From a virus (lineage: Duplodnaviria; Caudoviricetes): a DNA stretch of 64,000 bases. The stretch covers positions 24,025 to 88,024 of the IMG/VR virus record IMGVR_UViG_2731957752_000002, one strand, 5' to 3'. The notes beneath the pieces are model-generated. The model was not told the DNA's origin, searched no databases, and worked only from the letters and a program-made list of their open reading frames with translations. Both the position numbers and the translations under genes were made by a program. Within the stretch, counting starts at the first letter, position 1. Each line of letters begins with the position of its first letter. Shown here in pieces: positions 1,173 to 37,695 of the stretch.

Positions 1173-1499
1173 CTACCGCTGCTCGTCCATACCCTCCGGC
1201 AGCGACGTCAGGATGTCCCCCAACATCACCGCAAGCGCCGGATCGCTATAGACCCGACCCGATTTCGTGTCCCGGACACAGAACTCCTGCCCATGCCGGT
1301 GTGCGCGCACCAGTACGGCCATGATCAGCATCGCCTGGTTGTACAGGTGCGACTTCGGCAGCCCGGTCAGCTCCGACAGTTCTGACGCATATCGGTGCGT
1401 GTACGGCGACTGCGTGAAGGTCAAGCGCCGTTCAGCGTCTTTGCGGCCGTTGCCGTTCGGTGAGCCGTTGGTGTGTGGGGCGCCTGGGCCCGCGGTCAT
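1173..1499 (-). CDS. Ribbon-helix-helix-like DNA-binding protein, candidate repressor
   Basis: RLTFTQS strand then two helices (ELSELTG / KSHLYNQAM); lies between divergent promoters. Confidence 0.55.
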   Translation of the reverse strand: MTAGPGAPHTNGSPNGNGRKDAERRLTFTQSPYTHRYASELSELTGLPKSHLYNQAMLIMAVLVRAHRHGQEFCVRDTKSGRVYSDPALAVMLGDILTSLPEGMDEQR

Positions 1500-1720
1500 G
1501 GCTGCCTGCCGCTCGGTGAGTGTTCGAGCGTCGATTTGGTGGTCATCTGGGGCCTTCCTGTGATGCGCCAACGCATGCAGAGGGCTGCGGGCGGGGGAGT
1601 GGAGGGCGCGCCGGCCGATCGTGGGCGGCGCTGCTGTCTCTTGACGGTACGTCTCGTGTGCAGTGAATGCAATCGCATGCATGAGATCGAACCGTTACCG
1701 AAGTTTCTCAGCAGTTCCTG

Positions 1721-1750
1721 TTGCGTCTAGTGAGCTGTATCTCATACAGT
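1721..1750 (+). promoter_or_regulatory. Rightward early promoter TTGCGT-N18-TACAGT
   Basis: Hexamers; TGAATG overlaps the -10. Confidence 0.6.
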
Positions 1751-1802
1751 GAATGCAACGAACCGCTCCGGCTGGCACCGGACCAACCCGAAAGCGACAC
1801 CC

Positions 1803-1925
1803 ATGGACGACCGATACGAGTGGATCCCCGTCATCCACGAAACCTGCAACGGACAGGGCTGCCGCGACTGCGGCTTCACTGGCGAACTCACCGTCCGCAT
1901 CAACCTCGACGAGGTGGCGGCATGA
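1803..1925 (+). CDS. Small Cys-rich protein (40 aa)
   Basis: CNGQGCRDC motif; ATGA overlap with next gene. Confidence 0.55.
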   Translation: MDDRYEWIPVIHETCNGQGCRDCGFTGELTVRINLDEVAA

Positions 1926-2233
1926 ACCTCACCACCGTCGTACGTGACGTCCTCAACACCAGCGACTACCGCGTCACCGGCCACATCGGCGCAGACCACC
2001 TGTTCGCCGACGAATGCGACCACTGCAACACCGGGGCCACCGTCCTCATCGAGGCCACCACCAGCCACCAGCGCGGCGCGACCCGCGAAGGCCACATCTA
2101 CTGCGTCGAACACGCCATCAACGCCATCGACACCCTCACCTGGGCCAGCGACGCCGACGAAATCGCCGTCACCATCCCCGCGAACCTCGCCGCCCTCGCG
2201 ACCTTCACCGCCTCCCTCGACATCGCAGCCTGA
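1922..2233 (+). CDS. Hypothetical Zn-binding protein
   Basis: CDHC...CVEH; GAGG RBS. Confidence 0.7.
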   Translation: MNLTTVVRDVLNTSDYRVTGHIGADHLFADECDHCNTGATVLIEATTSHQRGATREGHIYCVEHAINAIDTLTWASDADEIAVTIPANLAALATFTASLDIAA

Positions 2234-2244
2234 AAGGCCACACC

Positions 2245-2610
2245 ATGCGTACCTACACCGAAACCGACGTCCGCCGCATGCTCGGCCTGCCCGCGAAGGA
2301 CCCACGCGTCGACTTCGAGAACGACTGGAACGGAAGCGAATTCAAAGACGCCGAGTGCGTCGTTGACAAGTGTCCTCACGTCAGCGCCGCCGTGTTTCTC
2401 GACTGGACCCGCCCCGGCTTCGACCCCGACACCGACCGGCCCAACCAACTCAACCTTGAGCAGTGGGCTCTGTGCTGGGAGCACGCTCGCGCCGACATCG
2501 CCGAAGCGCTCGACGAGACTGAGCCGTTCGCGCATGACGACGACGTTTACATCAAGGTCGTCGTCAACGGTTGGTACCTGGTGTACGGGCTCGGGCAGGT
2601 GGCGGCATGA
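2245..2610 (+). CDS. Hypothetical Zn-binding protein
   Basis: CVVDKC...CWEH; GAAAGG RBS. Confidence 0.7.
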   Translation: MRTYTETDVRRMLGLPAKDPRVDFENDWNGSEFKDAECVVDKCPHVSAAVFLDWTRPGFDPDTDRPNQLNLEQWALCWEHARADIAEALDETEPFAHDDDVYIKVVVNGWYLVYGLGQVAA

Positions 2611-3071
2611 GCGCCCGCATGTCCGGCGACGAGTACATGGAACTGCTGAAACAGCGTTCAGACGAATGGATGGCCTCACACTCGACCGTCCGGCCGAAGT
2701 TTCCGCCGCTGCTGACGTGGTTCATCCAGGACGGCGACGAAGACTTGGTTGACCCAGCCATCCTGGCCGCCCCCGAACCGAAGCCGAAGCCGGTTCGCCG
2801 TCCCCGCTACTACCGGCCCGCGTCGTACTGGCGGGACCAGATCGCCGAGATTGAAGCACGGATGGCACCGCTCACTGCGCCGCTGATCAACGACCGCGCG
2901 GCAGCTGGCGGAGTCGGTCTCGGCCCCAAGCGGACAGCCCGCATTCAGGCCAGGGAAGACGGCCGATTGCGGCGATACGTCGCCCTGCAAAAGCAGCTGG
3001 AGCACGCGAAACACATGTTGCGGAGCGCAGAGGTACGAGAGGCGCGCGCAGCAGGGAAGGCGGTGGCGTGA
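2607..3071 (+). CDS. Hypothetical phage protein
   Basis: ATGA coupling, codon bias. Confidence 0.7.
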   Translation: MSARMSGDEYMELLKQRSDEWMASHSTVRPKFPPLLTWFIQDGDEDLVDPAILAAPEPKPKPVRRPRYYRPASYWRDQIAEIEARMAPLTAPLINDRAAAGGVGLGPKRTARIQAREDGRLRRYVALQKQLEHAKHMLRSAEVREARAAGKAVA

Positions 3072-3310
3072 TGATCACCCGGCATCCGGCAGGCCGCCCC
3101 GTCACCTACTACGGGGAGGAACCGATCACCGACCACGACGGGTACGCCGTCGAGGTCGCGGGGGAGGAAGGCACCGAATGGTGCCGCCTGCGCATCGCAA
3201 CCGCGGTCGGGAGCCGCGTCCGTATCTCGGCTGAGCTCAACGAATCCGACGTCCGCGAGACCATCGCCCGCCTCGCCGCGTGGCTCGAAGATCACCAGGA
3301 GCAGAAGTGA
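3068..3310 (+). CDS. Hypothetical protein
   Basis: Coupled ORF. Confidence 0.65.
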   Translation: MMITRHPAGRPVTYYGEEPITDHDGYAVEVAGEEGTEWCRLRIATAVGSRVRISAELNESDVRETIARLAAWLEDHQEQK

Positions 3311-13711: not shown

Positions 13712-14110
13712 ATGAAGAACACCAAGTGGCTGCGGGTCGCGGCTGCGATGGCCGGTATCACGCTCGCCGCTAGCCTGATGGCGGGCTGCTCGTCCGACGC
13801 CGACGTAGCCAACGAAAACATCAAGAAGGCCGCCGAACAGTTCGAGATCAGCCGCCGGATCGTCGCCATCAACGGTGTCACCGACAAGTACCTGCTGGTT
13901 GTCGAGGGCAGGTGTTCCATCGAGTGGCCGGACAGTCGCGCTGACATCATCTGCAAGCTCGACGACGGCTCCTACATCAAGCACACGGTGCACCTGTCCG
14001 ACAACGTGACCGTGATGTCTGAGCAAACCAACGGCACGCAGGTCTCCACCGACCACTACCGGGTTGTCTTCAAACCTGAAGTGCTGCTGCCCAACGTCGA
14101 CCGGCCGTGA
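13712..14110 (+). CDS. Conserved phage lipoprotein
   Basis: Signal peptide, lipobox MAGC, SDADVA...RRIV.INGVTDKYL. Confidence 0.8.
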   Translation: MKNTKWLRVAAAMAGITLAASLMAGCSSDADVANENIKKAAEQFEISRRIVAINGVTDKYLLVVEGRCSIEWPDSRADIICKLDDGSYIKHTVHLSDNVTVMSEQTNGTQVSTDHYRVVFKPEVLLPNVDRP

Positions 14111-14182: not shown

Positions 14183-14575
14183 ATGAACGGCGTGCGCCAG
14201 ATCTATCGGGGACGCATACATGAAGCCCCATGCGGCGAACATGACGACGCCCTATTCCTCGCCGATATCGATGTTCCCTTAGCTGAGCGCATCGAAGACG
14301 GGCTAGACCAGTGGGGACGGTTCGCGACAGTCCGCTACTGGATCACCGACACCGAACGGTGCGCCGAAGAACTGACCGACAACCTCGCCAAGATCGCAGT
14401 CGGCGCCATCGATGCCGACTACACCCACTGCTACTCCGAGTACACCGGATACCTGTGGACCGACGAGGAATTGAACGTCGGCGGCCACGACCTCCTAGAC
14501 GAGCTGCGCACGCATCTCGGGCGGTTCGCTCACATCGAGTTCGAGTACTGCGTGGAGGCACCCAACCTTGAGTGA
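14183..14575 (+). CDS. Hypothetical phage protein
   Basis: YSEYTGYLWTDE...GGHDL motif. Confidence 0.7.
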   Translation: MNGVRQIYRGRIHEAPCGEHDDALFLADIDVPLAERIEDGLDQWGRFATVRYWITDTERCAEELTDNLAKIAVGAIDADYTHCYSEYTGYLWTDEELNVGGHDLLDELRTHLGRFAHIEFEYCVEAPNLE

Positions 14576-15224
14576 AGCGACCCCTGAGCTAGTCGCGGGC
14601 GCGCACACCGCCTTTGTCGACGCTGTCCATGCGCTCATCGGCCTGCGCCCCGACACCATCACCCGCGACGACGGAACCACCACCATCGTCCTCGACAGCC
14701 TCTACGCCGAACTCCTCGAAGCCCGACACGGCGAACAACGCAGCGACCCAACCGCCGGCACCGTCTACAAATCCCGGCCGCCCTTGTGGATCGACGCCGC
14801 GAGCCTGCTGCATCAGATCGACCGCACCGTAGCCGGATGGTGGCGTCACCTGCCCGCGGACGACCACGGCCTGCCCGCCACCGTGCGACGTTTGCATGCC
14901 CTCGTCGACCACGATTGGCGCCCGCAGGATGTGGGGGAGTTGCGGCGGATGACACGCACCGTCGAAGACTGGGTGCAGCGCGTGAAAACGCTGCTGCCCG
15001 AGGAAGTCACACACACGTGGGAGTTGCGAGCTGCCTGCCCGGCTTGCGGTGAAACCACCCTGCATGTTGACGACGGCAGCGGGGAGCTGGTGCGGCGGGC
15101 GGTGTTGCAGGCCAACCAATCCGGTGCGCACTGCCTCGCCTGCACAACCACGTGGGCGCCTGAATACTTCGCGATCCTCGCTCGAACGATCGGCGCGGGC
15201 CTCCCGGAAGGCGTGCTCGAATAA
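14568..15224 (+). CDS. Zn-finger protein typical of the end of early operons in actinobacterial prophages
   Basis: SRPPLWIDA; CPAC and CLAC. Confidence 0.75.
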   Translation: MSEATPELVAGAHTAFVDAVHALIGLRPDTITRDDGTTTIVLDSLYAELLEARHGEQRSDPTAGTVYKSRPPLWIDAASLLHQIDRTVAGWWRHLPADDHGLPATVRRLHALVDHDWRPQDVGELRRMTRTVEDWVQRVKTLLPEEVTHTWELRAACPACGETTLHVDDGSGELVRRAVLQANQSGAHCLACTTTWAPEYFAILARTIGAGLPEGVLE

Positions 15225-15229
15225 CGCTG

Positions 15230-15259
15230 TTGCATCCAGTGAATGCGATGTGTTACAGT
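15230..15259 (+). promoter_or_regulatory. Promoter of Y RNA/Ro60 locus, TTGCAT-N18-TACAGT with extended -10 TG
   Basis: Hexamers; two TGAATG motifs 19 nt apart. Confidence 0.75.
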
Positions 15260-15275
15260 GAATGAAAGCATCGGA

Positions 15276-15348
15276 TCCCGGTGCGAACGCAGACGGTTAC
15301 TTCTCATTCTGGTTGATAAAGACACCGACTGCGGTCATGTTCTCGGGA
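15276..15348 (+). ncRNA. Y-RNA-like unit 1 (short; apical TTCTGGT loop)
   Basis: Nested stems TCCCGG/TCGGGA, CGCAG/CTGCG, CGGT/ACCG; GGTGCGA and GGTTACTTC motifs. Confidence 0.6.
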
Positions 15349-15360
15349 GACAACTTCACA

Positions 15361-15504
15361 GGGGCGCTGGTCCGTAGGAGTGGGTTACTTCGCATTGGGA
15401 GCGCGTAGAGCGGGTTCAACTCCCGCCATCTCGCCATAGCGCGAGATGTGGTGTAACGGCAGCACTCGTACACGTCACCTACACCGTCTTGTTGTCAGCG
15501 CCCT
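15361..15504 (+). ncRNA. Y RNA (YrlA-like) unit 2 with circularly permuted tRNA domain
   Basis: GGGCGCTG/CAGCGCCC terminal stem, GCTGGTCCG Ro-binding motif, T arm, closed acceptor stem, D arm; upstream of TROVE gene. Confidence 0.85.
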
Positions 15505-15554
15505 ACTGTGACTGCCTCCCAAGGGCATCCGGGAAACCGGGGAGAACTTCACAA

Positions 15555-15662
15555 GGTGCTGATCCGTAGAAGTGGGTTACTTCTTTGGTTGAAACTCGCA
15601 GTGCTCCTGCGAGCTAGCGGTTCAAACCCGCACGTCACCCACCTCGCCTTGTTGACAGCACC
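15555..15662 (+). ncRNA. Y-RNA-like unit 3
   Basis: GGTGCTG/CAGCACC stem, GATCCG...TTGAC, GTGGGT/ACCCAC, T arm GCGG-TTCAAAC-CCGC. Confidence 0.8.
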
Positions 15663-15711
15663 GCTTGAAGCCTCCCAGCGCAATCCAGGAACCCGTTGGG
15701 AGGCATTTCTT

Positions 15712-17385
15712 ATGGCCCGCTTCAATACCCCCGCCAAGGCACGCCCAGTCGCTGTCGGACCGATCCGCACCAAGAGCAAGAAGACCACCACCCACGAGGG
15801 TGCGGACGGATTCTTGCGCGACGCACGCTCCGAACTGCTTCTTTTGGCAGTCTCAAATTTCGTAGGCACCGACTCCTTCTATGAGTCCGCTGCCGTCCGT
15901 GACGGTCGCTACCAGAAGCTCGTGCGGAAGATGGCCGTCAAAGACGGCGACTGGACCGCCCAGCTCCTCGCGTGGCTCCGCGGCCCCGAAGCCAACATGC
16001 GCACCGCATCGCTCGTCGGCGCCGCCGAATACGTGAAAGCCCGCCTCGACGCCGGCATCACAGGCAACAACCGGCACGTCATCTCGTCCGTTCTTCAGCG
16101 CGCCGACGAGCCGGGGGAGATGCTGGCCTACTGGGCCTCGAAGTACGGCTGGCCGGGAGGGCGCACACCCCACGAGAGCGGTAAGATGCCGACCGCGCCG
16201 GTGCTCCCGCAGCCGGTCAAGCGAGGCGTTGCAGACGCGGCGGTCAGGCTGTTTTCGGAACGGTCGCTGTTGAAGTACGACACCGCATCCCACGGCTTCC
16301 GGTTCGGCGACGTCATCGACCTCACTCACCCCGAGCCCAAAGCTGACTGGCAGTCCGACTTGTTCCGGCATGCCCTCGATCGCCGACACAACCGGGGCGA
16401 GAACATCCCCGACGCGCTGAACATGTTGGTGAAGAACCGGAACGTCCGCAACTGGACACCGGAGGAGATCGTGAAGCGCGCGAATTACACCGGTGACGAA
16501 CTGACGCCATTGTCGGAGGTGCTCGCGCAGTCCGGCATGACATGGGAAGACGTTCCGTCGTTGGTGAACGGACCGTGGACGAAGGAACTGTGGGAAGCCA
16601 TCATCCCGTCCATGGGCTACATGGCGCTGCTGCGTAACCTCCGCAACTTCGATCAGGCGGGCGTGTCCGACAAGGTGGCGGCGCAGGTGATCGCGAAACT
16701 CGCCGACCCCGAGCAGGTTGCGCGGTCGCGGCAGCTGCCGATGCGGTTCCTGTCCGCGTACAAGGCGGCGCCGTCGCTGCGGTGGGCGTACCCGCTGGAG
16801 CAGGCGTTGGATCACTCGCTCAGCAACATTCCGAAGCTCGCGGGCCGCACCCTGATCCTCGTGGACACCTCGTCGTCGATGGACGCTGGCTTCAGCAAGG
16901 ACGGGACGCTCATGCGGTGGGATGCCGCGGCGCTGTTCGGGATCGCGTTGGCGTCGCGTTGCGCGGACGCGGACGTGGTGTCGTTCTCGTCGACTGCCAT
17001 CTACTGGGGTGACCCTGTCGGCGCGAGGACGAAGGTGTTCGACCGCCCGCGTGGTGAGTCGCTGCTGAAGTCGCTGGACCGTTGGAAGTCGGGTGGCTGG
17101 TTCCTCGGCGGCGGTACAGCCACCCGAGAAGCCGTGCAGAAGCATTTCGCGAACCACGACCGTGTCGTCATCCTCACCGACGAACAGGCGGGCGGCACAG
17201 GGAATCCTGGCGCGGCAATCCCCAAGCAGACGCCGCTGTACACATGGAACCTCGCCGGATACCGAGCGAGTCATGCGGAGTCCGGTCCGTTCAGGCACAC
17301 GTTCGGCGGGTTGAATGACAGCGGCTTCCGCCTGATTCCGTTGTTGGAATCCGGGCGCAACGGCACGTGGCCGTGGATCTCCTGA
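15712..17385 (+). CDS. rsr: Ro60/Rsr TROVE-domain RNA-binding protein with C-terminal vWA
   Basis: THEG, SFYES, QRADEPGE, MGYMALLRNLRN, vWA MIDAS DTSSS, GGT, ILTDEQ; GGGAGG RBS before ATG 15712. Confidence 0.95.
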   Translation: MARFNTPAKARPVAVGPIRTKSKKTTTHEGADGFLRDARSELLLLAVSNFVGTDSFYESAAVRDGRYQKLVRKMAVKDGDWTAQLLAWLRGPEANMRTASLVGAAEYVKARLDAGITGNNRHVISSVLQRADEPGEMLAYWASKYGWPGGRTPHESGKMPTAPVLPQPVKRGVADAAVRLFSERSLLKYDTASHGFRFGDVIDLTHPEPKADWQSDLFRHALDRRHNRGENIPDALNMLVKNRNVRNWTPEEIVKRANYTGDELTPLSEVLAQSGMTWEDVPSLVNGPWTKELWEAIIPSMGYMALLRNLRNFDQAGVSDKVAAQVIAKLADPEQVARSRQLPMRFLSAYKAAPSLRWAYPLEQALDHSLSNIPKLAGRTLILVDTSSSMDAGFSKDGTLMRWDAAALFGIALASRCADADVVSFSSTAIYWGDPVGARTKVFDRPRGESLLKSLDRWKSGGWFLGGGTATREAVQKHFANHDRVVILTDEQAGGTGNPGAAIPKQTPLYTWNLAGYRASHAESGPFRHTFGGLNDSGFRLIPLLESGRNGTWPWIS

Positions 17386-17693
17386 ACCTGGTTTCGGGTC
17401 TGCTGGGGTGGAGGAGAGCGCAGGCGGCTGGTCGTGCGCTCTCCGCCCAGCTGGCGGCCAACCGGAACGCATTCAAAGCCGACCTCGTTCGGGCGCGTGA
17501 GGACGCTGGACTGAGCCGTGAGGACGTCGCCGAACGGCTTGGTGTCAGCGTCGAGCACATCGCCCGGTTCGAGGATCCGAAAGCCAACCCGCGACTGCAA
17601 ATGATCTGTTCCTACGCGCATGCGATCGGCGCGATCGTGGCGTTCGATGTCCGACCGTTCGAAGGGGATAAGGTTGCGAAACAAGCTGGGTGA
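17367..17693 (+). CDS. XRE-family HTH protein
   Basis: REDAGLSREDVAERLGVSVEHIARFE. Confidence 0.8.
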   Translation: MAVDLLNLVSGLLGWRRAQAAGRALSAQLAANRNAFKADLVRAREDAGLSREDVAERLGVSVEHIARFEDPKANPRLQMICSYAHAIGAIVAFDVRPFEGDKVAKQAG

Positions 17694-24449: not shown

Positions 24450-24561
24450 TCGGCGGTATGCCCGAGGTCGGGGCGGGGACCGGTTAGGTCGATCAATCGT
24501 CGTACGGATAGGGTTGGTGGCTGTTGTCCATTCCCCGCCAGCCCTGGACAGGAGACCAGTA

Positions 24562-25947
24562 GTGGGTAAGCAGTCCCGTGTCGATACCGTCGCCAACCTC
24601 GCAAAACGTCGAGGAATCGTCTACCAATGCGGCGAAATCTATGGCGGCACCAAGTCGGCATGGGACTACGGTCCGCTCGGCGTCGAGCTGAAGGAGAACA
24701 TCAAGCGGCAGTGGTGGCGGTCCATGGTCACCGGCCGCGAAGATGTCGTCGGCTTGGACTCGTCGGTGATCCTGCCGCGCCAGGTGTGGCATGCATCCGG
24801 CCACGTCGAGACGTTCTCTGACCCGCTGGTGGAGTCGCTACACACCCACAAGCGATACAGGGCCGATCACCTGCTGGAGGCGTACGAAGCCAAGCACGGG
24901 CACCCGCCGGCCAACGGTCTCGCCGACATCCGTGACCCTGAGACGGGGCAGCCTGGCGCGTGGACGGAGCCGCGGAACTTCTCCGGCCTGCTCAAGACCT
25001 TCCTCGGTCCGGTGGATGACGAAGAAGGCTTGCACTATCTCCGCCCGGAGACGGCGCAGGGCATCTTCGTCAACTACAAGAACGTCGAGACCACCGCGCG
25101 CAAGAAGCCGCCGTTCGGCATCGCCCAGATCGGCAAGAGCTTCCGCAACGAGATCACGCCGGGCAACTTCATCTTCCGCACCCGCGAGTTCGAGCAGATG
25201 GAGATGGAGTTCTTCGTCAAGCCGGGCGAGGACGAGCAGTGGCACCAGTACTGGATCGACACCCGCATGGCCTGGTACACCGAACTGGGTATCGACCCGG
25301 AGAATCTGCGACTGTTCGAGCATCCGAAGGACAAGCTGTCGCATTATTCGACGCGGACTGTGGACATCGAGTACCGGTTCGGGTTCCAGGGCAGCGAGTG
25401 GGGTGAGTTGGAAGGTGTCGCCAACCGCACTGACTTCGACCTGAAGACGCATTCGGAGCACTCGGGTACCGAACTCAGCTACTTCGACCAGGCCACCAAC
25501 GAGCGCTACATCCCGTACGTCATCGAGCCCGCGGCCGGTCTGACTCGTTCGCTGATGGCGTTCCTGGTGGACGCGTACACGGAGGATGAGGCGCCGAACG
25601 CGAAGGGTGTGATGGAGTCGCGGACCGTGCTGCGCCTGGACCACAGGCTTGCGCCGGTGAAGGTGGCGGTGCTGCCGCTGTCCCGTAACGCTGATCTGAC
25701 TCCGAAGGCGAAGGATCTCGCGGCCCAGCTGCGGAAGCACTGGAATGTGGAGTTTGATGATGCGGGTGGTGTCGGTCGTCGTTACCGCCGTCAGGATGAG
25801 ATCGGTACACCGTTCTGTGTGACGGTCGATTTCGATTCGCTGGACGATCAGGCGGTGACCATCCGGGAGCGGGACTCGATGGCGCAGGAGCGTGTCGGGT
25901 TGGACCAGGTGGAAGCGTATTTGGCGACGCGGCTGCTGGGCTGCTGA
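24562..25947 (+). CDS. glyQS: Glycine--tRNA ligase (alpha2, class II)
   Basis: [61 protein letters not shown]; AGGAG RBS before GTG. Confidence 0.97.
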
Positions 25948-26170: not shown

Positions 26171-26240
26171 TCCTCGATAGCTCAGTGGTAGAGCGCCCGA
26201 TAGAAAGGGACGGTCCCGCGTTCAATTCGCGGTCGAGGAA
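26171..26240 (+). tRNA. tRNA-like gene with defective anticodon arm (isotype undetermined)
   Basis: Perfect acceptor TCCTCGA/TCGAGGA, D arm and T arm; anticodon arm only CCC-GATAGAAA-GGG. Confidence 0.7.
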
Positions 26241-26243
26241 CAA

Positions 26244-26587: not shown

Positions 26588-26663
26588 AGCGGCGTAGAGC
26601 AGTTCGGTAGCTCGCTGGGCTCATAACCCAGGTCTGTCGTGGGTTCAAATCCCACCGCCGCGA
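26588..26663 (+). tRNA. tRNA-fMet (CAT), initiator type
   Basis: Cloverleaf; 1:72 mismatch, three G-C pairs in anticodon stem, A11-U24; CCA not encoded. Confidence 0.9.
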
Positions 26664-26689
26664 CAACCACCCCGACTTTGCGAACCGGG

Positions 26690-29669: not shown

Positions 29670-29918
29670 ATGCACGCCTACCGATCACGGATCAAGGGAG
29701 AGTATGCGTGGTTGATTTTGGGAGTCTCGGTGCTCGTATATGAGGCCCTTGCACCGGCCGATCAACTGCTGACGACGGCGTGTGCGCGGGGATTGACGCG
29801 CCATCCTGTGCTTACTCGGGCCGCGATTGTAATCACGGCCGCTCATCTGCTCCGGCTCATACCCCCCTCGTTGGACCCGTATAGTGGAGCTGAAAAGCTC
29901 CTCCGAAAGTGGAATTAA
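29670..29918 (+). CDS. Small membrane protein
   Basis: AW...YE...QLL...AHL...DP pattern. Confidence 0.65.
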   Translation: MHAYRSRIKGEYAWLILGVSVLVYEALAPADQLLTTACARGLTRHPVLTRAAIVITAAHLLRLIPPSLDPYSGAEKLLRKWN

Positions 29919-29946
29919 ATCGACTGTCGCAAGCGTTATTTCAGAT

Positions 29947-30705
29947 ATGGTTGATGTCGAACGATGGTCCGATATTCCCGGATATGAGGGCTACTATCAA
30001 GCGAGCGACCAGGGGCGGATAAAGAGCCTCCGGCGAACGATCCTGCGAGCCAACGGCATCCCGCAAACGGTGAAAGAGCGGATCCTTCGCCCAGGTCGAT
30101 TGAGCAGCGGGCATCTTCATGTCGCGCTGAACGCGCCCGATAAGTCAATCAAGACGCGCCGAGTGCATCAGCTTGTCATGCTGGCATTTGTGGGACCGAC
30201 GCCCGAAGGGCTTGAGATCTGCCACAACGACGGCAACCATGAGAACAATCGTCTCGATAATCTCCGGTTCGACACTCACGCTGAGAATATGCGGGATGTC
30301 ATCAGGCATGGTGGCAATGCATACACGCGCCGGACCATGTGTCCAAATGGTCACGAGTACACATCTGAGAATGCCGGTGCAATCAAGGGGCGCGGTGGAC
30401 GCTACTGTCGCGCATGCAAGTCGGAGAACTGGCGGGCATGGCGAGGACAACAGGAACCACGAGGGCCGCGGTCGCACTGCCGTAAAGGGCATGAGTACCG
30501 TCCTGGTTCCTTCACTCAAAATGGTGAGTCCGGACGGCGTCTATGCATCGAATGTCAGCGGGCGAGAACGGCACGACAGCGTCCGACGCATTGCCACCGA
30601 GGGCATGAACAGAACAGTCAGAATGCATATACGGGCAAAGATGGCCGACGTCAGTGTCGTGTCTGCAAGAACGCCCGGCGGCGCAAGAACTCTCAAACTC
30701 CTTGA
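29947..30705 (+). CDS. NUMOD4-HNH endonuclease with three Zn-finger repeats
   Basis: W..IPGYEG.YQAS..GRI; CHNDGN..NNRLDNL; three CxxGH...CxxC. Confidence 0.9.
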   Translation: MVDVERWSDIPGYEGYYQASDQGRIKSLRRTILRANGIPQTVKERILRPGRLSSGHLHVALNAPDKSIKTRRVHQLVMLAFVGPTPEGLEICHNDGNHENNRLDNLRFDTHAENMRDVIRHGGNAYTRRTMCPNGHEYTSENAGAIKGRGGRYCRACKSENWRAWRGQQEPRGPRSHCRKGHEYRPGSFTQNGESGRRLCIECQRARTARQRPTHCHRGHEQNSQNAYTGKDGRRQCRVCKNARRRKNSQTP

Positions 30706-30857: not shown

Positions 30858-31385
30858 ATGGCACGAAAACGCACCATCCCCGTCGAAGTCCTCGTGCAAG
30901 CGCAGGAACGTCGCAACAAGATCCTGGAACTGCGTCTCGCAGGCAAGTCCCAAGCCCAGATCGTGGCCGAAACAGGCTGGTCCAAACAGACCGTCAGCGC
31001 CGACCTGAAACGAGCTATCGAGGACATCACCCGCGAAAACGCCGAAGAATACCGGGAACTGGAACTCACCCGCCTCGACGAAATGTGGGCAGCCATCTGG
31101 CCGCGGATCGTCAACCCGAAAAACGCCGAGGAACGCAAAGCCCAACCATGGTTAATGGACCGCGCATTCGAGATCATCGAGAAGCGCGCCAAACTCACAG
31201 GCACTTACAAGGCAGCCGAACTGCGCGCCATCGCTGACGCCAAGGGTGGTGTCGGCACCGAGACTTTGTCCATGGTCGGCAGCTTCTTCAGCCGACTGGA
31301 AGAACTCGTCGCAGCCGATCAGCTCGCCGACGACAACGAGGAGACAGAGCCCGCAGATAGCGACGAAACGGACCTTCCAGAGTGA
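30858..31385 (+). CDS. Terminase small subunit
   Basis: N-terminal HTH, ELTRLD, RAKLTG; precedes TerL. Confidence 0.75.
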   Translation: MARKRTIPVEVLVQAQERRNKILELRLAGKSQAQIVAETGWSKQTVSADLKRAIEDITRENAEEYRELELTRLDEMWAAIWPRIVNPKNAEERKAQPWLMDRAFEIIEKRAKLTGTYKAAELRAIADAKGGVGTETLSMVGSFFSRLEELVAADQLADDNEETEPADSDETDLPE

Positions 31386-32692
31386 ACGTCCTCGACGACC
31401 TGCCACTGTCTCGCAAGCAGATCGTCAGCATCGTCGAAGCCCGCCGCTACCGCACCACCATCTGGTCAGGAGCCGTCCGCGCCGGCAAAACCATCGCCTC
31501 GATTCTCGCGTTCTACGACGCCGTGCACAAGGCGCCCGACACCGGGCTCATCATCATCGTCGGCCGAACGTTGCAGACCATTGAACGCAACATCATCGAA
31601 CCGATGCAGGACGAGAACGTCTTCGGTCCGTGGGCGGCAGAGGTGCATCACACCCGCGGCTCGAACATCGCGGTAATCCTCGGTCGCACCGTGCACTTGA
31701 TCGGCGCGTCCGATGTGCGCGCGGAGGGGAAGTTGCGCGGCATGACGTGTTGCCTCGCGCTCGTCGACGAAGCAACGTTGTTGCCAGAGAACTTCTGGAC
31801 CCAGTTGCAAGCGCGACTCTCGGTTCCTGGCGCCCGTTGTCTCGCGACAACGAATCCGGACAATCCTGCCCACTATTTGAAGACGAAGTTCATCGACAAG
31901 GCGTCCGACCCAGAGATGCGGTTGCGTGCGTGGAACTTCACGATGGACGACAACCCGTCTCTCGACCCGGAATTCGTGGCTACCACGAAGGCGTCGTTCA
32001 CGGGATTGTTCTATCTCCGCAACATTCTCGGACATTGGGTTGCCGCCGAAGGCGGCGTGTATGACTGCTTTGATCCCGATCGGCATGTGGTGAAATGGGC
32101 CGACCTGCCCGAGATGCAATGGTATGTGGGTGTCGGCGTCGATCACGGTACGACTAACCCGACCGCCGCGACCATGGTTGGCCTCGGCGTGGACAATGTC
32201 CTCTATGCGGTCGACGAATGGCGGTATGAACCCAGCAGCAAGGAAGCCCGCCGGACCAACGTACAACTGTCCCAAGGGCTACGAACATGGCTTGCCGGTC
32301 CGCACCACCCGAGCGAAGACCCAGACAGTCCGCCCCGGATCACATGCCCCGTGGTCGTCGACCCCGCCGCTGCGGACTTCCGTGTCCAGTTGAAACAGGA
32401 CGGGCTCAGCACCGGCCCCGCCCAAAACGATGTCCTCTATGGGATCAGGACGGTGTCCGCTCTTTTCAGCGTGGACAAACTGAAGATAGCTGATCGATGC
32501 GTCGGGCTTATCAAAGAGATTCCCGGCTATGTGTGGGATACCAAGGCCACCGAAGAAGGAAAAGACCAGCCGATCAAGCTGGATGATCATTCTGTGGACA
32601 GTGTTAGGTACGCCCTGGTTTCGACTGAGCGGAAATGGCGGCGCCGCGTAAAGCTGGCGCATGATTCGAAAGCAGAACCGGTTGCTGCGTGA
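31382..32692 (+). CDS. terL: Terminase large subunit (PBSX-like)
   Basis: GAVRAGKT, LVDE, TTNP, DHG, DHSVDSVRY. Confidence 0.95.
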   Translation: MNVLDDLPLSRKQIVSIVEARRYRTTIWSGAVRAGKTIASILAFYDAVHKAPDTGLIIIVGRTLQTIERNIIEPMQDENVFGPWAAEVHHTRGSNIAVILGRTVHLIGASDVRAEGKLRGMTCCLALVDEATLLPENFWTQLQARLSVPGARCLATTNPDNPAHYLKTKFIDKASDPEMRLRAWNFTMDDNPSLDPEFVATTKASFTGLFYLRNILGHWVAAEGGVYDCFDPDRHVVKWADLPEMQWYVGVGVDHGTTNPTAATMVGLGVDNVLYAVDEWRYEPSSKEARRTNVQLSQGLRTWLAGPHHPSEDPDSPPRITCPVVVDPAAADFRVQLKQDGLSTGPAQNDVLYGIRTVSALFSVDKLKIADRCVGLIKEIPGYVWDTKATEEGKDQPIKLDDHSVDSVRYALVSTERKWRRRVKLAHDSKAEPVAA

Positions 32693-34216: not shown

Positions 34217-35824
34217 GTGGCGATGCCTGAGTTCAAAGGCGCGTGGCCGCCGGAGCCCCACGATCAGGCGGCAGACGCCTACGACACCTTCACCGCCTGG
34301 TGGTCAGGTGATGTGGAAACGCTTCAGGAGATCTACAGCGATAGCAGCCGGATGCCAGCGCCGCGGCCGTCGCAGTTGGCGGGTGGGTGGCGAGGCCGGC
34401 TGGCCCGCTTTTGGTACGGCCGACCAGTCCTTCAGGACACCAAGCGCCTTCACATCCCGGCCGCCGCGGATATCGCAACCACTTCAGCGGACCTGCTGTT
34501 CGGTCAGCCCCCTACCTGGCTGTTCAACCAGGGCGATGCGAAAGACCTCCAAGCCGCGCAGGACCGGTTGTCGGATCTGCTCGACGGCGCCGACACGGTA
34601 GCGACCCTGTTGGAAGCTGCTGAGGTGCAAGCGGCCTTGGGTGGTGTCTACATTCGGCTCCATTGGGACAAAGAGGCCACTGAGAAGGTGATGTTCTCCG
34701 CGGTCGCCCCTGACGCTGCTATCCCGGAGTGGCGGTACGGGAAGCTGATCGCAGTGACTTTCTGGTCTGTTGTCGCGAAGGACAAGCGGGGCACGTGGCG
34801 GCACTTGGAGCACCACAGTATCGGCAGGATCGAACATGCCCTCTATCTGGGTGATGACGGCTCGATTGGCCGTGAAGTGCCGCTCGACTTGTTGGATGCC
34901 ACGAAGTGGGCCGCCGATCAGCCTGTCGTAGAGACCGGCGTGGACGGCTTGACTGCCTGCTACATCCCGAACGTTCGTCCGGCTCGCCGCTGGCGAAACA
35001 CTCCCGGCCTGTCCGCACTGGGCCGCTCAGACTTCGAGGGTGTGGAGCCGCTGTTCGACGCACTGGACGAGGTGTGGTCGTCGTGGATGCGGGATATCGA
35101 TCTCGCGAAAGCCCGCCTGTTCGTCGCGCAGGAGCTGTTGGAGGATCAAGGACCGGGCAAGGGCTCCACGTTCGACCCGGAGCAGGCGATCTTCACGCCG
35201 GTGCCGTCCGATGGGATGGCGCTGAATGACGACAGCGGCGCGCGGCTCGTGCAAGCCCAGCAGTTCGCGATTCGGGTGGAGGAGCACTCGAAGACGTGCG
35301 ACAAGCTGTTGAAGCAAATCCTTCGCGCGGCAGGCTATTCGGCGGGCGACTTCGACGATTCGGAGACTGCCGGTGCGATCACCGCTACCGAGGTGTCCGC
35401 GCGCAAGGACAAGTCGAACACCACCCGATCCCGGAAAATACTTTACTGGCAGAGCGAGTTTCCAAAACTTGCGTCGGTCGCACTCCGCCTCGATGGACTG
35501 ATCTTCCAGCGCCCCGATCTCGGAATCACCGCCGACCCGGAAATGGTGTTCCCGGTGCGCGTGGACCAGGATCCGGTGCAGTTGGCTACCGCGCTTTCCG
35601 CGTTGAAGACTGCCCGGTTGATCTCGACGGAGACCGCGGTCCGGGAACGCAACCCGAACTGGTCGAAGGACGAGGTTGACGACGAGGTCGCCCGGATCCT
35701 GAAGGAAAACACGCTGGAAGTCGCTGACCCTGATGGCGGCGAGTTCGAACCAGCCCACGAGGAACCCGACACCGGTTTCACCGATGAGGTCGAGCCCGAC
35801 AGTGAGGTGGAGGAGGCGGCGTAA
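34217..35824 (+). CDS. Portal protein
   Basis: SADLLFG, GRSDF, IRVEEH, TATEV; position. Confidence 0.9.
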   Translation: MAMPEFKGAWPPEPHDQAADAYDTFTAWWSGDVETLQEIYSDSSRMPAPRPSQLAGGWRGRLARFWYGRPVLQDTKRLHIPAAADIATTSADLLFGQPPTWLFNQGDAKDLQAAQDRLSDLLDGADTVATLLEAAEVQAALGGVYIRLHWDKEATEKVMFSAVAPDAAIPEWRYGKLIAVTFWSVVAKDKRGTWRHLEHHSIGRIEHALYLGDDGSIGREVPLDLLDATKWAADQPVVETGVDGLTACYIPNVRPARRWRNTPGLSALGRSDFEGVEPLFDALDEVWSSWMRDIDLAKARLFVAQELLEDQGPGKGSTFDPEQAIFTPVPSDGMALNDDSGARLVQAQQFAIRVEEHSKTCDKLLKQILRAAGYSAGDFDDSETAGAITATEVSARKDKSNTTRSRKILYWQSEFPKLASVALRLDGLIFQRPDLGITADPEMVFPVRVDQDPVQLATALSALKTARLISTETAVRERNPNWSKDEVDDEVARILKENTLEVADPDGGEFEPAHEEPDTGFTDEVEPDSEVEEAA

Positions 35825-36786
35825 TGCCTCTGACCCCTTCCTACGGTGACCGCCGCATCGGCCCGATTCAACGCCTCTACCGCAAGACGGAGAAGCGACT
35901 GATTCAGTGGCTCGCTAAGACTGTGGCCCCTGGCGTTGGGCATGGGTGGGCGTGGGCGTACAACGCCCTGTCCCGCCTGCTGAAGTTCCGGGTCGGTGTT
36001 GACCGAATCATGTCCGAAACCGATAACGTGATGCAGCCGCGCGTGGAATCTGCGATCCGCGGCGCTTGGCGAGACGGACTTACTGAGGCTCGACGCGATG
36101 CAGGGCCCGCGCCGGCGCCGGATGAGCGGCCGATGTGGCGGATCATCGACGACACCACCGAGGCGATTCGTGGCGCGCACCGCCATGTTCCGCGCTCGCT
36201 GGACAACGTGTACCGCGAGATCGTTGACGCCGCAGTGCATCCCCGCGAGATCGGGGAGCAGGCGCGCAGGGACGCGGTGCAACGTGCGCTGGAAGCGTTC
36301 GCACGCCAAGGCATCACGGGGTTCATGGACTCCCGTGGTCGTCGCTACGACTTCGTCACCTATGTGGAGACTGCGGTCCGTTCGGCGATCACTCGCGCCG
36401 AGGTGGATGCCTACTGTGCACAAGCTGTCTCGGCTGGGCATGACCTTGTGATCGTGTCCGATGTCGCTGGCTCCTGCCCGCTGTGCCGCCCTTTCGAGGG
36501 CCAAGTGTTGAGCATCACCGGCAACACCGTCGGCGCCATCGCCCGCGACAACAGCACGGGCCACGCCGTGCGTGTGCGCGTGTTGTGCTCGCTCGCGCAG
36601 GCACGTGAACGTGGCCTGTGGCATCGCAATTGCCGACACACCCTCAAGGTGTGGACGCCCGATGACCCTGCTCCGCCGCGTGCGGCCCGTGTTCCTGCCG
36701 AAGTGCGTGAGCGGCGTCGCCGTCAACGCAGTGCTGCGCGCCGGAACCGTATCCGTGAACGCGTCGGATTCGTTGCACAGTCCTAA
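35824..36786 (+). CDS. Minor capsid protein (MuF/Phage_min_cap2-like)
   Basis: CPLCRPFEGQVLS, GLWHRNCRH. Confidence 0.88.
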   Translation: MPLTPSYGDRRIGPIQRLYRKTEKRLIQWLAKTVAPGVGHGWAWAYNALSRLLKFRVGVDRIMSETDNVMQPRVESAIRGAWRDGLTEARRDAGPAPAPDERPMWRIIDDTTEAIRGAHRHVPRSLDNVYREIVDAAVHPREIGEQARRDAVQRALEAFARQGITGFMDSRGRRYDFVTYVETAVRSAITRAEVDAYCAQAVSAGHDLVIVSDVAGSCPLCRPFEGQVLSITGNTVGAIARDNSTGHAVRVRVLCSLAQARERGLWHRNCRHTLKVWTPDDPAPPRAARVPAEVRERRRRQRSAARRNRIRERVGFVAQS

Positions 36787-36932
36787 ATAAGCTTCCCGCC
36801 TTCTGTGCGGGGACTCTACCCCCAACCTTTAACTCAGAATTCCTGAGTTAAAGGTTCTGAGGGTTTCGTCATTTCAACACCCTGTATGGCCAGGTTGCCT
36901 GCGGGTGTTTCTGCGTGTCCAGGAGGCACATC

Positions 36933-37667
36933 ATGGCCGACGAAGCCACCCCCCAGGAAACCACAACTGAAAACGCTGTCGACACTCCTGTCGAAACCCC
37001 GGCCGACAATCCGGTGCCCGGTGACGCTGTACAGGTCCCCGAGTCCGAAAACCCGGTCGAAACTCCTGCCCCCGAGCAGGAAAAGCCCGCGGCAAAAACC
37101 TACGACGAAGCCTACGTCAAGAAGCTTCGCGAGGAGAACGCCGCGACCCGCGTGAAGGGTAAAGAGGCTGCGGAAAAGGCTGCACAGGATGCCGCCGCTG
37201 CTGCCGAGAAGGCCCTCACTGAGAAGTGGGCGAAGGCTCTCGGACTGACCAAGGACGACGAACCCGCCGATCCCGCTGAGCTGCTGAAGCAGGCTGAGGA
37301 GCGGGAAAAGCAGATCGCCGCAGAGCGCGACGCTGCTGCTGAACGGCTCCGCGCCTACGAGCGCAAGGACGCCATCACCAAAGCCGTCAATGACGTTGAC
37401 GGCGACCTCGAATCCATTCTCGATTCCCGCAAGATCAGCGTGGAAATCGAGAAACTCGACACGAATGCCGACGATTTCGCTGCCCAGGTGGCCGCGATCG
37501 TTTCTGCGGCAGTCGAATCCAACCCAAAGCTCAAGAAGGCTGCCGACCGGGCGTCGGCTCCTCGAAGCGGCGGTGATCTCTCGAACGGCAACGCGGCACC
37601 GAAACCGCGCGGCCCGAAAACCGTTGACGACTTCCGGCGCGAAATCGCCGAACGCAATAAGCGTTAA
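36933..37667 (+). CDS. Capsid scaffolding protein
   Basis: Acidic N-terminus, KLREENA, coiled coil; precedes capsid. Confidence 0.8.
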   Translation: MADEATPQETTTENAVDTPVETPADNPVPGDAVQVPESENPVETPAPEQEKPAAKTYDEAYVKKLREENAATRVKGKEAAEKAAQDAAAAAEKALTEKWAKALGLTKDDEPADPAELLKQAEEREKQIAAERDAAAERLRAYERKDAITKAVNDVDGDLESILDSRKISVEIEKLDTNADDFAAQVAAIVSAAVESNPKLKKAADRASAPRSGGDLSNGNAAPKPRGPKTVDDFRREIAERNKR

Positions 37668-37695
37668 GTCGTTCTGATTCTAGGAGCCACATTCA

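Follow-up and report, generated by a model that had tools for sequence, protein, structure and literature searches.

Directly upstream of a gene for a Ro60-like protein, a prophage carries three tandem Y RNA genes, whose RNAs are probably partners of that protein, and we consider it likely that the middle unit, of the YrlA type, mimics a permuted tRNA and includes a full anticodon arm, whose role we infer. Within the window, by which we mean the whole stretch of 64,000 nucleotides analysed, the array spans positions 15273–15670 and lies directly 5′ of the TROVE/Ro60 gene (15712–17385), with unit 3 ending 42 nt before the start of that gene; RDF, terminase, portal and head protein genes flank the array and point to the prophage setting. 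The system is a known one (Ro60 with YrlA and YrlB RNAs), apparently carrying a structural variant without description so far.

15273–15349, + strand: Y RNA unit 1, simple hairpin type (YrlB-like), without T arm (motif, fold)
15361–15503, + strand: Y RNA unit 2, YrlA type, with a circularly permuted tRNA-like domain (sequence, fold, homologues)
15547–15670, + strand: Y RNA unit 3, with a predicted Ro60-binding-type stem and a T arm, no D arm (repeats shared with unit 2, fold)
15712–17385, + strand: gene for a Ro60/Rsr-like TROVE-domain protein of 557 aa (PF05731, E 1.1e-18)

A protein search gave 47% identity between the Ro60-like protein and phage genes annotated 'Ro-like RNA binding protein'. 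Relatives in the phage collection were detected by protein search only; at the DNA level, the collection held no match to positions 14500–17500 (megablast) or to unit 2 (blastn). Searching the window with Rfam returned no Y RNA or tRNA family over the array, the only match being a T-arm fragment, and a scan of 15100–15800 returned no promoters or terminators.

The sequence GGTTACTTC occurs once per unit (15295–15303, 15383–15391 and 15575–15583) and is the conserved Y RNA junction motif, given as 'YUAY' in the relevant passages of Chen 2014 (PMC4201824). In each unit, the stem formed by the two ends would carry the Ro60-binding motif in its 5′ strand and stop at the conserved junction GGUUACUUC, and the module following the junction would be the effector module. 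The initial annotation had placed a hairpin with an anticodon-like 7-nt loop right after the motif in every unit. All three hairpins exist exactly as it stated; the anticodon likeness holds fully for unit 2 and plausibly for unit 1, whereas it is poor for unit 3, which has U at position 37.

Architecture of the middle unit

The 5′ and 3′ ends of unit 2 form a stem of the Ro60-binding type with GGTCCGTAG, the predicted binding motif, in the 5′ strand. This GNCGAA-like/GGUCCGA-like element lies within 15361–15379, which is paired with 15483–15503 in the MFE fold. The YUAY element is TTAC at 15385–15388, inside GGTTACTTC, and the distance from the end of the unit to the same-strand ATG at 15712 is 209 nt, well inside the 4 kb used to define Ro60 proximity. 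Its arms follow the permuted YrlA order of T arm, closed acceptor-like hairpin and D arm.

15391–15405, + strand: anticodon-like arm CGC/ATTGGGA/GCG with two inter-strand pairs (sequence, covariation)
15467–15468, + strand: dinucleotide following the D arm and position 26, completing the 5-bp anticodon stem (covariation)
15406–15465, + strand: remainder of the tRNA-like domain (fold, Rfam T-arm match), comprising the next five features
15406–15409, + strand: variable loop TAGA
15410–15426, + strand: T arm (Rfam T-arm fragment, fold)
15427–15448, + strand: closed acceptor-like hairpin, 8 bp (fold)
15449–15450, + strand: TG linker
15451–15465, + strand: D arm GTGT/AACGGCA/GCAC (fold)
15360–15435, + strand: ARAGORN 'tRNA-Pro(tgg)', over the 5′ half of unit 2 and taken as a pseudo-tRNA, no tRNA gene (ARAGORN)

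Three local pairs (C15391–G15403, G15392–C15402 and C15393–G15401) close the loop ATTGGGA at 15394–15400, which presents U33, the triplet UGG, G37 and A38 and matches a real anticodon loop at 6/7 positions, with a similar stem. Together with two inter-strand pairs (C15404–G15468 and G15405–C15467) they make a 5-bp stem, followed by a 4-nt variable loop and then the T arm. The small hairpins of units 2 and 3 are found in the RNAfold MFE structures and are absent from the centroids. On the reading we propose, a complete anticodon arm takes its 7-nt loop and its lower three pairs from the hairpin after the junction, and its upper two pairs from the strand that runs on from the D arm. In effect, the Ro60-binding stem would therefore be an insertion into a full cloverleaf, placed between positions 28 and 29. 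Read from its sequence, the middle unit is a mimic of a whole tRNA, five-pair anticodon arm included.

The YrlA RNAs of S. Typhimurium, M. smegmatis and mycobacteriophages (RF02553), as portrayed in excerpts of the literature, share with unit 2 a same-strand Ro60 gene just downstream, the 5′ motif in the terminal stem, the YUAY element, the order of T arm, closed acceptor hairpin and D arm, and a stem-loop ('V') before the T arm. In passages of Chen 2014 (PMC4201824), YrlA and YrlB stand upstream of rsr in M. smegmatis and mycobacteriophages, and the V stem-loop preceding the T arm is termed 'less-conserved'; YrlA membership there and in RF02553 further includes being bound by Ro60 and being a substrate of TruB, DusA, RNase P or the CCA-adding enzyme. 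Unit 2 differs from the family in its D arm (GTGT...GCAC instead of GCTC...GAGC) and in that RF02553 has no match to the window at E up to 10, while among homologues the model matched 12 of 12 related loci with 24.9–51.8 bits, all below its gathering score of 69. We take the 'V' stem-loop to be the lower portion of an anticodon arm that has 5 bp and a tRNA-type loop of 7 nt; at this position the RF02553 consensus has no hairpin.

The published picture, as conveyed by parts of Wang 2018 (bioRxiv 10.1101/312249), is of YrlA as a tRNA mimic without an anticodon loop, the S. Typhimurium RNA being said there to lack 'the anticodon loop'. A five-pair anticodon arm apparently goes without mention in the YrlA descriptions considered, and the figures or supplements of Chen 2014 may already depict the hairpins discussed here. 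The L-shaped tRNA-like core recalls tmRNA and the TYMV tRNA-like structure, both discussed in sections of Wang 2018, and the permuted tRNA genes of algae and archaea described in the same source, in whose pre-tRNAs, too, the acceptor loop is closed and the transcript ends make up the anticodon stem. Unlike in the permuted tRNAs, the permutation or insertion point of unit 2 would lie inside the anticodon stem (28/29), and the inserted helix is predicted to bind Ro60.

Conservation of the hairpin among homologous units

Upstream of Ro60 homologues 41–68% identical to the window's protein, 159 distinct GTTACTTC units were collected, of which 101 have a T arm and 71 of these a D-like arm too, and were divided into YrlA-type units (T and D-like arm, n=71), T-arm-only units (n=30) and units without a T arm (n=58). 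A first pattern scan had yielded at least 551 confirmed relatives among the 600 matched stretches listed. In 60 of the 101 T-arm units and in 51 of the 71 YrlA-type units, 3 bp or more close a 7-nt loop whose end is 8–11 nt away from the T stem, as in tRNAs; 500 shuffles gave a mean of 19.2 and a maximum of 33. The classes were also scored for a U33-type hairpin, defined as at least 3 bp and a 7-nt loop with U at loop position 2 within the stretch after the motif. It was found in 48/71 YrlA-type units (shuffles: mean 8.2, maximum 15), 47 of the 48 having a purine at 37, in 24/58 units without a T arm, the class of unit 1 (shuffles 3.1; purine 37 in only 13/24), and in 13/30 T-arm-only units, the class of unit 3 (shuffles 3.1; purine 37 in 7/13).

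On these comparisons, support for the hairpin is strong only in the unit 2 class, where, to judge from the homologues, it is a real, conserved element. Loops of free length with no U33 preference, which the initial annotation had named as evidence against anticodon likeness, were not seen in the unit 2 class, whereas they are largely what the classes of units 1 and 3 display. The hairpin is absent from 20 of the 71 YrlA-type units, including one clade of 8, and is therefore dispensable. A loop-length scan across classes was rejected as evidence; nested stems were counted several times.

That the three 3-bp hairpins stand by accident beside a conserved motif, or that unit 2 is a real tRNA-Pro gene, seems to us very improbable. 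The stems are indeed short, as had been cautioned at the outset. When the 23 nt after the motif in the window were shuffled, a stem of 3 bp or more closing a 7-nt loop that has U at position 2 arose at frequencies of 0.069, 0.070 and 0.125 for units 1–3 (product 6e-4, the units being paralogues and not independent), and without the U33 requirement a 3-bp stem and 7-nt loop arose in 22–48% of shuffles per unit; for unit 2, however, the enrichment and covariation across the family contradict a chance origin. As to a tRNA gene, ARAGORN takes the unit 2 hairpin as the anticodon arm of a 'tRNA-Pro(tgg)', but the acceptor stem of this call pairs at 5 of its 7 positions, two of them G-U, leaving two mismatches, the Rfam tRNA model RF00005 (which needs 29 bits) has no match, and the stretch lies inside the Y RNA stem common to units 2 and 3; this candidate was rejected. 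In favour of a tRNA-like arm in the unit 2 class, ARAGORN read 13 such units across 60 loci as tRNAs in the same register as the window's own, and the Rfam tRNA model reached 25.5–26.7 bits (threshold 29) on three of the 13.

Of 41 distinct homologous units, 39 have a Watson-Crick pair at the inter-strand position 27*–43, where 3 pair types occur, and 37 have one at 28*–42, where 4 occur. Over both pairs this makes 76 of 82 cells, whereas shuffles averaged 35.6 and none of 5000 reached 76; the local pairs are at 100% in this 41-unit test by construction, the rows having been picked for having them. At the inner stem pairs there were 7 and 13 double changes, with a covariation of 0.344 versus 0.125 in shuffles (0/500 reached 0.344), so that compensatory changes were found in four stem pairs, inner and inter-strand. 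RNAalifold on the 55-sequence alignment recovered the T arm only and no anticodon-like hairpin.

Loops of the YrlA type follow the consensus C32 U33 NNN R37 A38, with C32 in 44, U33 in 53, a purine at 37 in 54 and A38 in 50 of the 60 loops from T-arm units. The triplet is variable, with 29 kinds among the 60 loops, GUU, GGU and CCU being commonest; in 47 rows it takes 21 forms and requires at least 32 changes on the Ro60 tree, against 17 for the loop flanks. In 7 of 9 independent contrasts G36 accompanied G37, and the reverse was never seen (p=0.016). Five independent sister pairs differed at 7 of 15 triplet positions, their four-fold sites having diverged by 0.19 on average (binomial p=0.014, a rough estimate). 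The triplet would accordingly evolve no more slowly than four-fold degenerate positions, which, given the GC richness of the genome, make a poor standard of neutrality. Exact identity with a real anticodon loop of this genome was found for 28/53 loops, compared with a flank permutation mean of 20.6, and 4 of 5000 permutations reached 28, in a test that ignores relatedness and draws its tRNA set from one genome only. Taken together, the comparisons indicate that the loop frame (Y32 U33 R37 A38, with the 36/37 rule) is under constraint and that the triplet is free or diversifying. The anticodon-loop resemblance proposed initially is thus borne out, more strongly than the letters alone could reveal, in the unit 2 class by tRNA geometry, covariation, the 36/37 rule and frequent exact loop matches.

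These data also bear on the suggestion that the hairpin is an inert relic of a tRNA, or tRNA dimer, ancestral to YrlA, at most a generic cap in the variable-arm position with anticodon-like features that are not selected, which we regard as unlikely. The dimeric-tRNA origin model for YrlA cited in part of Wang 2018 (bioRxiv 10.1101/312249) would agree with it, as would the hypervariable triplet, the loss of the hairpin in one clade and the wording 'less-conserved' in the Chen 2014 passage. A relic does not readily explain, however, why the loop retains its length, U33, R37 and A38 among Ro60 proteins as divergent as those surveyed, why the flanks change less than the triplet, why four stem pairs show compensatory changes or why G36 and G37 change together.

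Units 1 and 3

The hairpins of the outer units, and the arms that follow in unit 3, are the following.

15304–15316, + strand: unit 1 apical hairpin TCA/TTCTGGT/TGA, loop at 15307–15313 (sequence)
15581–15593, + strand: unit 3 first hairpin TTC/TTTGGTT/GAA (sequence, MFE fold)
15595–15613, + strand: unit 3 second hairpin, 7 bp with a 5-nt loop (fold)
15617–15631, + strand: unit 3 T arm GCGG/TTCAAAC/CCGC (fold)

The basal stem of unit 1 pairs TCCCGG (15276–15281) with TCGGGA (15343–15348), and CGAA at 15284–15287 precedes the junction motif. The apical hairpin, present in the RNAfold MFE structure, has a 3-bp stem and a 7-nt loop with U33 and G37, and no T arm follows. The loop had been likened initially to that of actinobacterial tRNA-Gln(CUG), correctly so, TTCTGGT being identical at 7/7 positions to the genome's own tRNA-Gln(CUG) anticodon loop. 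Homologues of unit 1 include those at loci L015, L112, L002 and L095; its nearest relatives have other loops, and loop length in the class ranges from 3 to 15 nt. By the best local alignment with all host tRNAs, tRNA-Gln(CUG) came top for unit 1 (11/12 identical), but with a score of 19 against 18 for unrelated hits, a margin too small to be taken as significant. By description, unit 1 resembles M. smegmatis YrlB and the Y RNAs with a 'long hairpin, small loop' in the corresponding passages of Chen 2014, namely a simple hairpin beside YrlA and upstream of Ro60, and differs in that its loop is the host tRNA-Gln anticodon loop. On the reading favoured for unit 2, unit 1 would carry a reduced form of the unit 2 hairpin with a tRNA-Gln(CUG)-like loop.

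In unit 3, positions 15547–15561 pair with 15656–15670 to form the basal stem. The initial annotation was also accurate in describing a 7-bp hairpin and a T arm after the first hairpin, another hairpin thus standing between the latter and the T arm. The first loop, on a 3-bp stem, has U33 but no purine at 37, and TGGT occurs in 15 of the 30 T-arm-only units against 2.5 expected, with or without a hairpin. The motif count makes a stand-in for a D loop a likelier reading here than an anticodon loop, and unit 3 would have a non-permuted order, with a GG loop in the D position, a hairpin and the T arm. In layout only, this recalls D. radiodurans Yrn1 as outlined in Chen 2014 (PMC4201824, in part), which has a D-like element, a short-loop hairpin in the anticodon-arm position and a T arm.

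Possible roles and consequences for annotation

According to the portions of Chen 2014 (PMC4201824) and Wang 2018 (bioRxiv 10.1101/312249) relevant here, it is not yet known which effector binds bacterial YrlA RNAs at their tRNA-like half. The element of unit 2 emerges from the comparison of homologues and its role we infer: the anticodon arm would complete the tRNA look-alike, such that the Ro60 particle would tether or titrate host factors that bind tRNAs. Should a full anticodon arm with tRNA-faithful loops indeed be a feature of a large branch in actinobacteria and phages, candidate partners extend to enzymes that read anticodon loops, and the question of the partner becomes open to simple loop mutants.

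A broadened form of the initial proposal holds the loops to be functional mimics of anticodons that would bait or decoy enzymes reading anticodon loops, among them VapC/MazF-type toxins, further anticodon nucleases or modification enzymes; the array would be a Gln-CUG and Pro-UGG panel that protects or reports on host tRNAs in phage–host conflict. The loop matches (7/7 in unit 1, 6/7 in unit 2, 28/53 exact in the family), the tRNA-like 36/37 rule and the rapid triplet change are consistent with it, as are a Ro60-like phage protein reported to counter a defence system (PMC11482910, in excerpt) and the discussion of Ro/TROVE as an RNA-repair platform in phages (a passage of PMC7824862). We nevertheless judge it improbable, and for decoys of Gln/Pro-specific VapC/MazF toxins, as first inferred, no support emerged. 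The Gln/Pro preference was not conserved, UGG being found in only 3 of the 60 loops; the window holds no toxin gene, all 6 PIN and 1 PemK matches of the genome being on other contigs; the hairpin is lost in 20 of the 71 units of the class; the acceptor hairpins follow clade, not triplet; and the yardstick for the rapid triplet change is a poor one. Aminoacylation identity would lead one to expect acceptor hairpins that change with the triplet; this was accordingly rejected, and because the hairpins follow clade nothing else in the RNA tracks the 'anticodon'. A link between the loops and the prophage glycine-tRNA ligase was also rejected, since the loops are Gln-like and Pro-like and have no relation to Gly.

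A speculative extension, which we put slightly ahead of that proposal and still think doubtful, is that actinobacterial and actinophage YrlA RNAs are complete cloverleaves with the Ro60 stem inserted in the anticodon stem and with fast-switching loops read by anticodon nucleases or position-37 modifiers; the arrays would then be tRNA-specific bait or decoy panels, here for Gln(CUG) and Pro(UGG), coupling Ro60 to tRNA damage in phage–host conflict.

ARAGORN made 21 tRNA calls in 20 of the 60 loci, in addition to the window's own, and in Gordonia phage Neville such units lie under small 'hypothetical protein' genes. Because ARAGORN calls these units tRNAs and the Neville units are covered by protein-gene calls, phage annotations are likely to contain errors of both kinds.

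Three Y RNA units in a prophage

The window is a prophage, in which three tandem Y RNA units (units 1 to 3) lie upstream of a Ro60 gene that starts 42 bases past unit 3. A nine-base junction word, GGTTACTTC, is present in each unit, with copies starting at 15295, 15383 and 15575.

Features of the prophage, the Y RNA units and the Ro60 gene
13712-14110, recombination directionality factor
15304-15316, unit 1 hairpin TCA/TTCTGGT/TGA, after the word copy at 15295
15391-15403, unit 2 hairpin CGC/ATTGGGA/GCG, after the word copy at 15383
15410-15426, unit 2 T arm
15427-15448, unit 2 closed hairpin, 8 bp
15451-15465, unit 2 D arm GTGT/AACGGCA/GCAC
15581-15593, unit 3 hairpin TTC/TTTGGTT/GAA, after the word copy at 15575
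15595-15613, unit 3 second hairpin, 7 bp, after the first
15617-15631, unit 3 T arm, after the 7-bp hairpin
15712-17385 (+), TROVE-domain (Ro60) protein, 557 aa (PF05731, E 1.1e-18)
29884-30705, HNH endonuclease
31382-32692, large terminase
34217-35824, portal
35824-38613, head proteins

The array has the layout of the bacterial Y RNAs in the parts of Chen et al. (2014; PMC4201824) consulted here, which describe a motif close to the 5' end that binds Ro60, a conserved YUAY, a YrlA tRNA-like domain ordered as V stem-loop, T arm, closed acceptor hairpin and D arm, and YrlA and YrlB upstream of rsr in M. smegmatis, with such RNAs also in mycobacteriophages. Unit 2 carries every part of this YrlA layout. 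The 5' strand (GGTCCGTAG... up to GGGTTACTTC) is common to units 2 and 3 and pairs with their common 3' strand, and unit 1 has a more diverged version of it, with CGAA at 15284-15287. The best named-phage matches of the TROVE protein, with no more than 47% identity, were genes annotated 'Ro-like RNA binding protein' in phages of Gordonia and Streptomyces.

Unit 3 is flanked on both sides by a 22-nt inverted repeat (82% complementary, arms 15513-15534 and 15684-15705), whose downstream arm overlaps with the Ro60 gene's ribosome-binding site, GGGAGG. Such a repeat might serve as a processing stem or hide that site. Elsewhere, the prophage holds an intact glycine-tRNA ligase gene (24514-25947, +; NF003211, 666 bits; PDB 8t5n, E 8.5e-259), which lies between tRNA-Met and genes for a Dam-like methylase and DUF6378, and the second GlyRS match of the genome, on contig C50, was reported as three pieces. 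ARAGORN called tRNA-Ser(aga) at 26171-26241 and tRNA-Met at 26588-26664, of which Rfam confirmed tRNA-Met only (58.4 bits).

The loops of the three window units

The initial annotation had placed a small hairpin after each word copy, and the sequences were present as described in all three units. All three hairpins appeared in minimum-energy folds (RNAfold), while those of units 2 and 3 were missing from the centroid structures, as expected of 3-bp stems. When the 23 nt following the word were shuffled for each unit, the chance of a 7-nt loop with U as its second base, closed by 3 bp or more, was 0.069, 0.070 and 0.125 for units 1 to 3, respectively.

Comparison with the genome's own tRNAs bore out the proposed identity of the unit 1 loop, TTCTGGT, with the host tRNA-Gln(CUG) anticodon loop. 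Among homologous Ro60-linked loci (L-numbers), TTCTGGT closes a 5-bp stem in the YrlA-type unit of L117, and L095 has TTCTGGC; in the units most closely related to unit 1, however, the loops are different and longer. Across the 58 units that lack a T arm, the loop of the best apical hairpin was 3 to 15 nt long; it was 7 nt in 12 units, and by inspection four of these 12 loops equal real anticodon loops. Unit 2 reads TTCGC/ATTGGGA/GCGCG, as compared with TCCGC/TTTGGGA/GCGGA in the host tRNA-Pro(UGG); its loop recurs in L112, and L015 has ATTCGGA. In unit 3, TTTGGTT and the loop region of tRNA-Gln(UUG) have seven bases in common only when the register is shifted, and position 37 is U. TGGT stands right after the word in 15 of 30 T-arm-only units, with or without a hairpin (2.5 expected), and the order of GG loop, hairpin and T arm is that of D. 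radiodurans Yrn1 as described in Chen et al. (2014; PMC4201824, sections consulted). From this constancy and the Yrn1-like order, we infer that the first loop of unit 3 is probably a D-loop stand-in.

Homologous units and the position of the hairpin

From the matches listed for Ro60 protein and Ro60 alignment queries, 173 loci were fetched from actinobacterial genomes and IMG/VR contigs, so that, with the window included, 157 distinct upstream regions were available. A relaxed version of the word, preceded by a Ro-motif-like G.[CT]G, occurred 167 times in 98 of them and was absent from the other 59. The exact word, GTTACTTC, defined 159 distinct units, with a T arm within 70 nt in 101 (71 of which also have a D-like arm) and without one in 58. 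This exact-word survey leaves out YrlA-type units with the variant words GATACTTC, CCTACTTC, GTTCTTC and GTTCCTTC (L039 1324-1392, L049, L074, L081, L114 and L117 1151-1222), which have 5-bp stems and anticodon-type loops. Gordonia phage Neville carries four GTTACTTC units (L175 963-1373) immediately before its Ro gene (CDS 1423-3099) or at the beginning of it, with word starts at locus positions 1027, 1167, 1252 and 1410, the first three inside the small 'hypothetical protein' CDS 88-90 and the fourth between the last of these and the Ro CDS.

The Rfam YrlA model, RF02553, matched units in all 12 related loci tried (24.9-51.8 bits, all below the 69-bit threshold), and matched the Neville unit at 1252 with 44.1 bits. 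Window unit 2 gave no RF02553 match at E up to 10; its D arm, GTGT...GCAC, departs from the family's nearly invariant GCTC...GAGC. L112 and L153 have the same D arm variant, which is similar to that of tRNA-Gln(UUG) in this genome.

The distance from word to T stem peaked sharply, at 19 nt in 36 and 18 nt in 16 of the 101 T-arm units. In 60 of the 101, 51 of them among the 71 units that also carry a D-like arm, at least three contiguous pairs enclose a 7-nt loop whose end lies 8-11 nt upstream of the T stem, as it would in an anticodon arm followed by a variable loop of 4-5 nt; 500 shuffles gave a mean of 19.2 such units (sd 3.9, maximum 33). The 60 include some spurious registers, such as the second hairpin of window unit 3. 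Among these 60 loops, C32 occurred in 44, U33 in 53, U36 in 36, A37 in 43, G37 in 11 and A38 in 50.

Double changes numbered 13 and 7 at the two inner pairs in a MAFFT alignment of the 55 units that had a D arm and a 17-20 nt spacer, and whole-structure covariation was 0.344 as compared with 0.125 in shuffles, none of 500 reaching the observed value; every slid register scored below this one. RNAalifold predicted the T arm alone from this alignment, without the small hairpin.

A composite five-pair stem in YrlA-type units

The acceptor hairpin and D arm could be parsed in 47 of 48 units and, with two units of doubtful D arm dropped, 41 distinct rows were obtained. In these, the three local pairs stand at 100% because the rows were selected for having them, and the outer two local 'pairs', with the invariant UU of the word, were poor (23/41 and 32/41 paired, mostly G-U). 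The partners of positions 43 and 42 are instead the two bases next after the D arm and position 26, with Watson-Crick pairing in 39/41 and 37/41 rows (C-G 21, G-C 16 and U-A 2 at the first position; C-G 23, U-A 8, A-U 4 and G-C 2 at the second). Together, 76 of 82 cells were paired, while random dealing of the 3' halves gave a mean of 35.6 and reached 76 in none of 5000 shuffles. The corresponding pairs in the window are C15467-G15405 and G15468-C15404. Thus, in the predicted structure of the unit 2 class, the local and inter-strand pairs form a 5-bp stem with a 7-nt loop, and the Ro60-binding stem branches between positions 28 and 29.

This arm differs from the RF02553 consensus, which lacks the hairpin and has a 4-bp helix beside the T and D arms, and from S. 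Typhimurium YrlA, which 'lacks the anticodon loop' according to the consulted part of Wang et al. (2018; bioRxiv 10.1101/312249). The texts retrieved on YrlA and Y RNAs gave no account of YrlA having an anticodon-like arm, a negative on which figures, supplements and the 2020 Annual Review may bear; 'anticodon' occurs three times in Chen et al. (2014; PMC4201824), and the accessible passages relate to Yrn1. ARAGORN read 13 exact-word units in 60 loci as tRNAs with the anticodon exactly in the 7-nt loop, and made two odd calls on such units and six on variant-word units (21 calls, 20/60 loci). Window unit 2 was called 'tRNA-Pro(tgg)', but we rejected it as a tRNA-Pro gene: the ARAGORN acceptor stem has two mismatches and two G-U pairs in seven positions, and the Rfam tRNA model gave no match on this unit.

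Loop turnover and possible function

When 62 Ro60 proteins were placed on a FastTree phylogeny, units with the 7-nt loop occurred throughout it, with one clade of eight rows lacking the loop. In 47 rows that each had a single U33 loop, at least 32 changes of the triplet (21 kinds) were counted, as compared with 17 for the four flanking loop positions together. G36 and G37 co-occurred (both in 8 rows, neither in 35, one alone in 2 each); across nine independent G36 contrasts, G37 went the same way in seven, the opposite way in none and did not differ in two (sign test p=0.016).

The loops were also compared with host anticodon loops from 58 of 68 ARAGORN calls of the window's genome (undetermined, >91 nt and Y-unit calls dropped). 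In tests that ignore relatedness and use one genome's tRNAs only, exact 7-nt matches were found for 28 of 53 loops (mean 20.6 with flanks re-dealt among triplets; 4/5000 reached 28) and 12 of 32 distinct loops (mean 7.2; 37/5000 reached 12). Closely related loci were compared in 33 pairs, which diverge by a mean of 0.26 at four-fold sites, are not independent and include two loci with shifted registers; the triplet differed at 54/99 positions and the flanks at 37/132. Five independent sister pairs, with a mean divergence of 0.19 at four-fold sites, differed at 7/15 triplet positions (rough binomial p=0.014).

Loops that change fast yet stay true to type would fit anticodon mimics acting as decoys or baits for anticodon-reading enzymes, as would reports that, in the parts consulted, link phage Ro60 to RNA repair or counter-defence (PMC7824862, PMC11482910, PMC12135203). 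We nevertheless consider this role improbable. The Gln/Pro specificity initially proposed, as bait for VapC/MazF-type toxins, is not conserved: the middle triplet takes 29 forms in the 60 homologous loops (GTT 10, GGT 5, CCT 5, GCT 4, TGG 3). Moreover, no toxin gene was found in the window, and the genome's six PIN matches and one PemK match are all on other contigs. Taken together, the comparison of homologous sequences shows the predicted anticodon-like element of the unit 2 class and its constraints, and this arm would complete a tRNA look-alike tethered to Ro60. The acceptor hairpins of these units track clade, not triplet.
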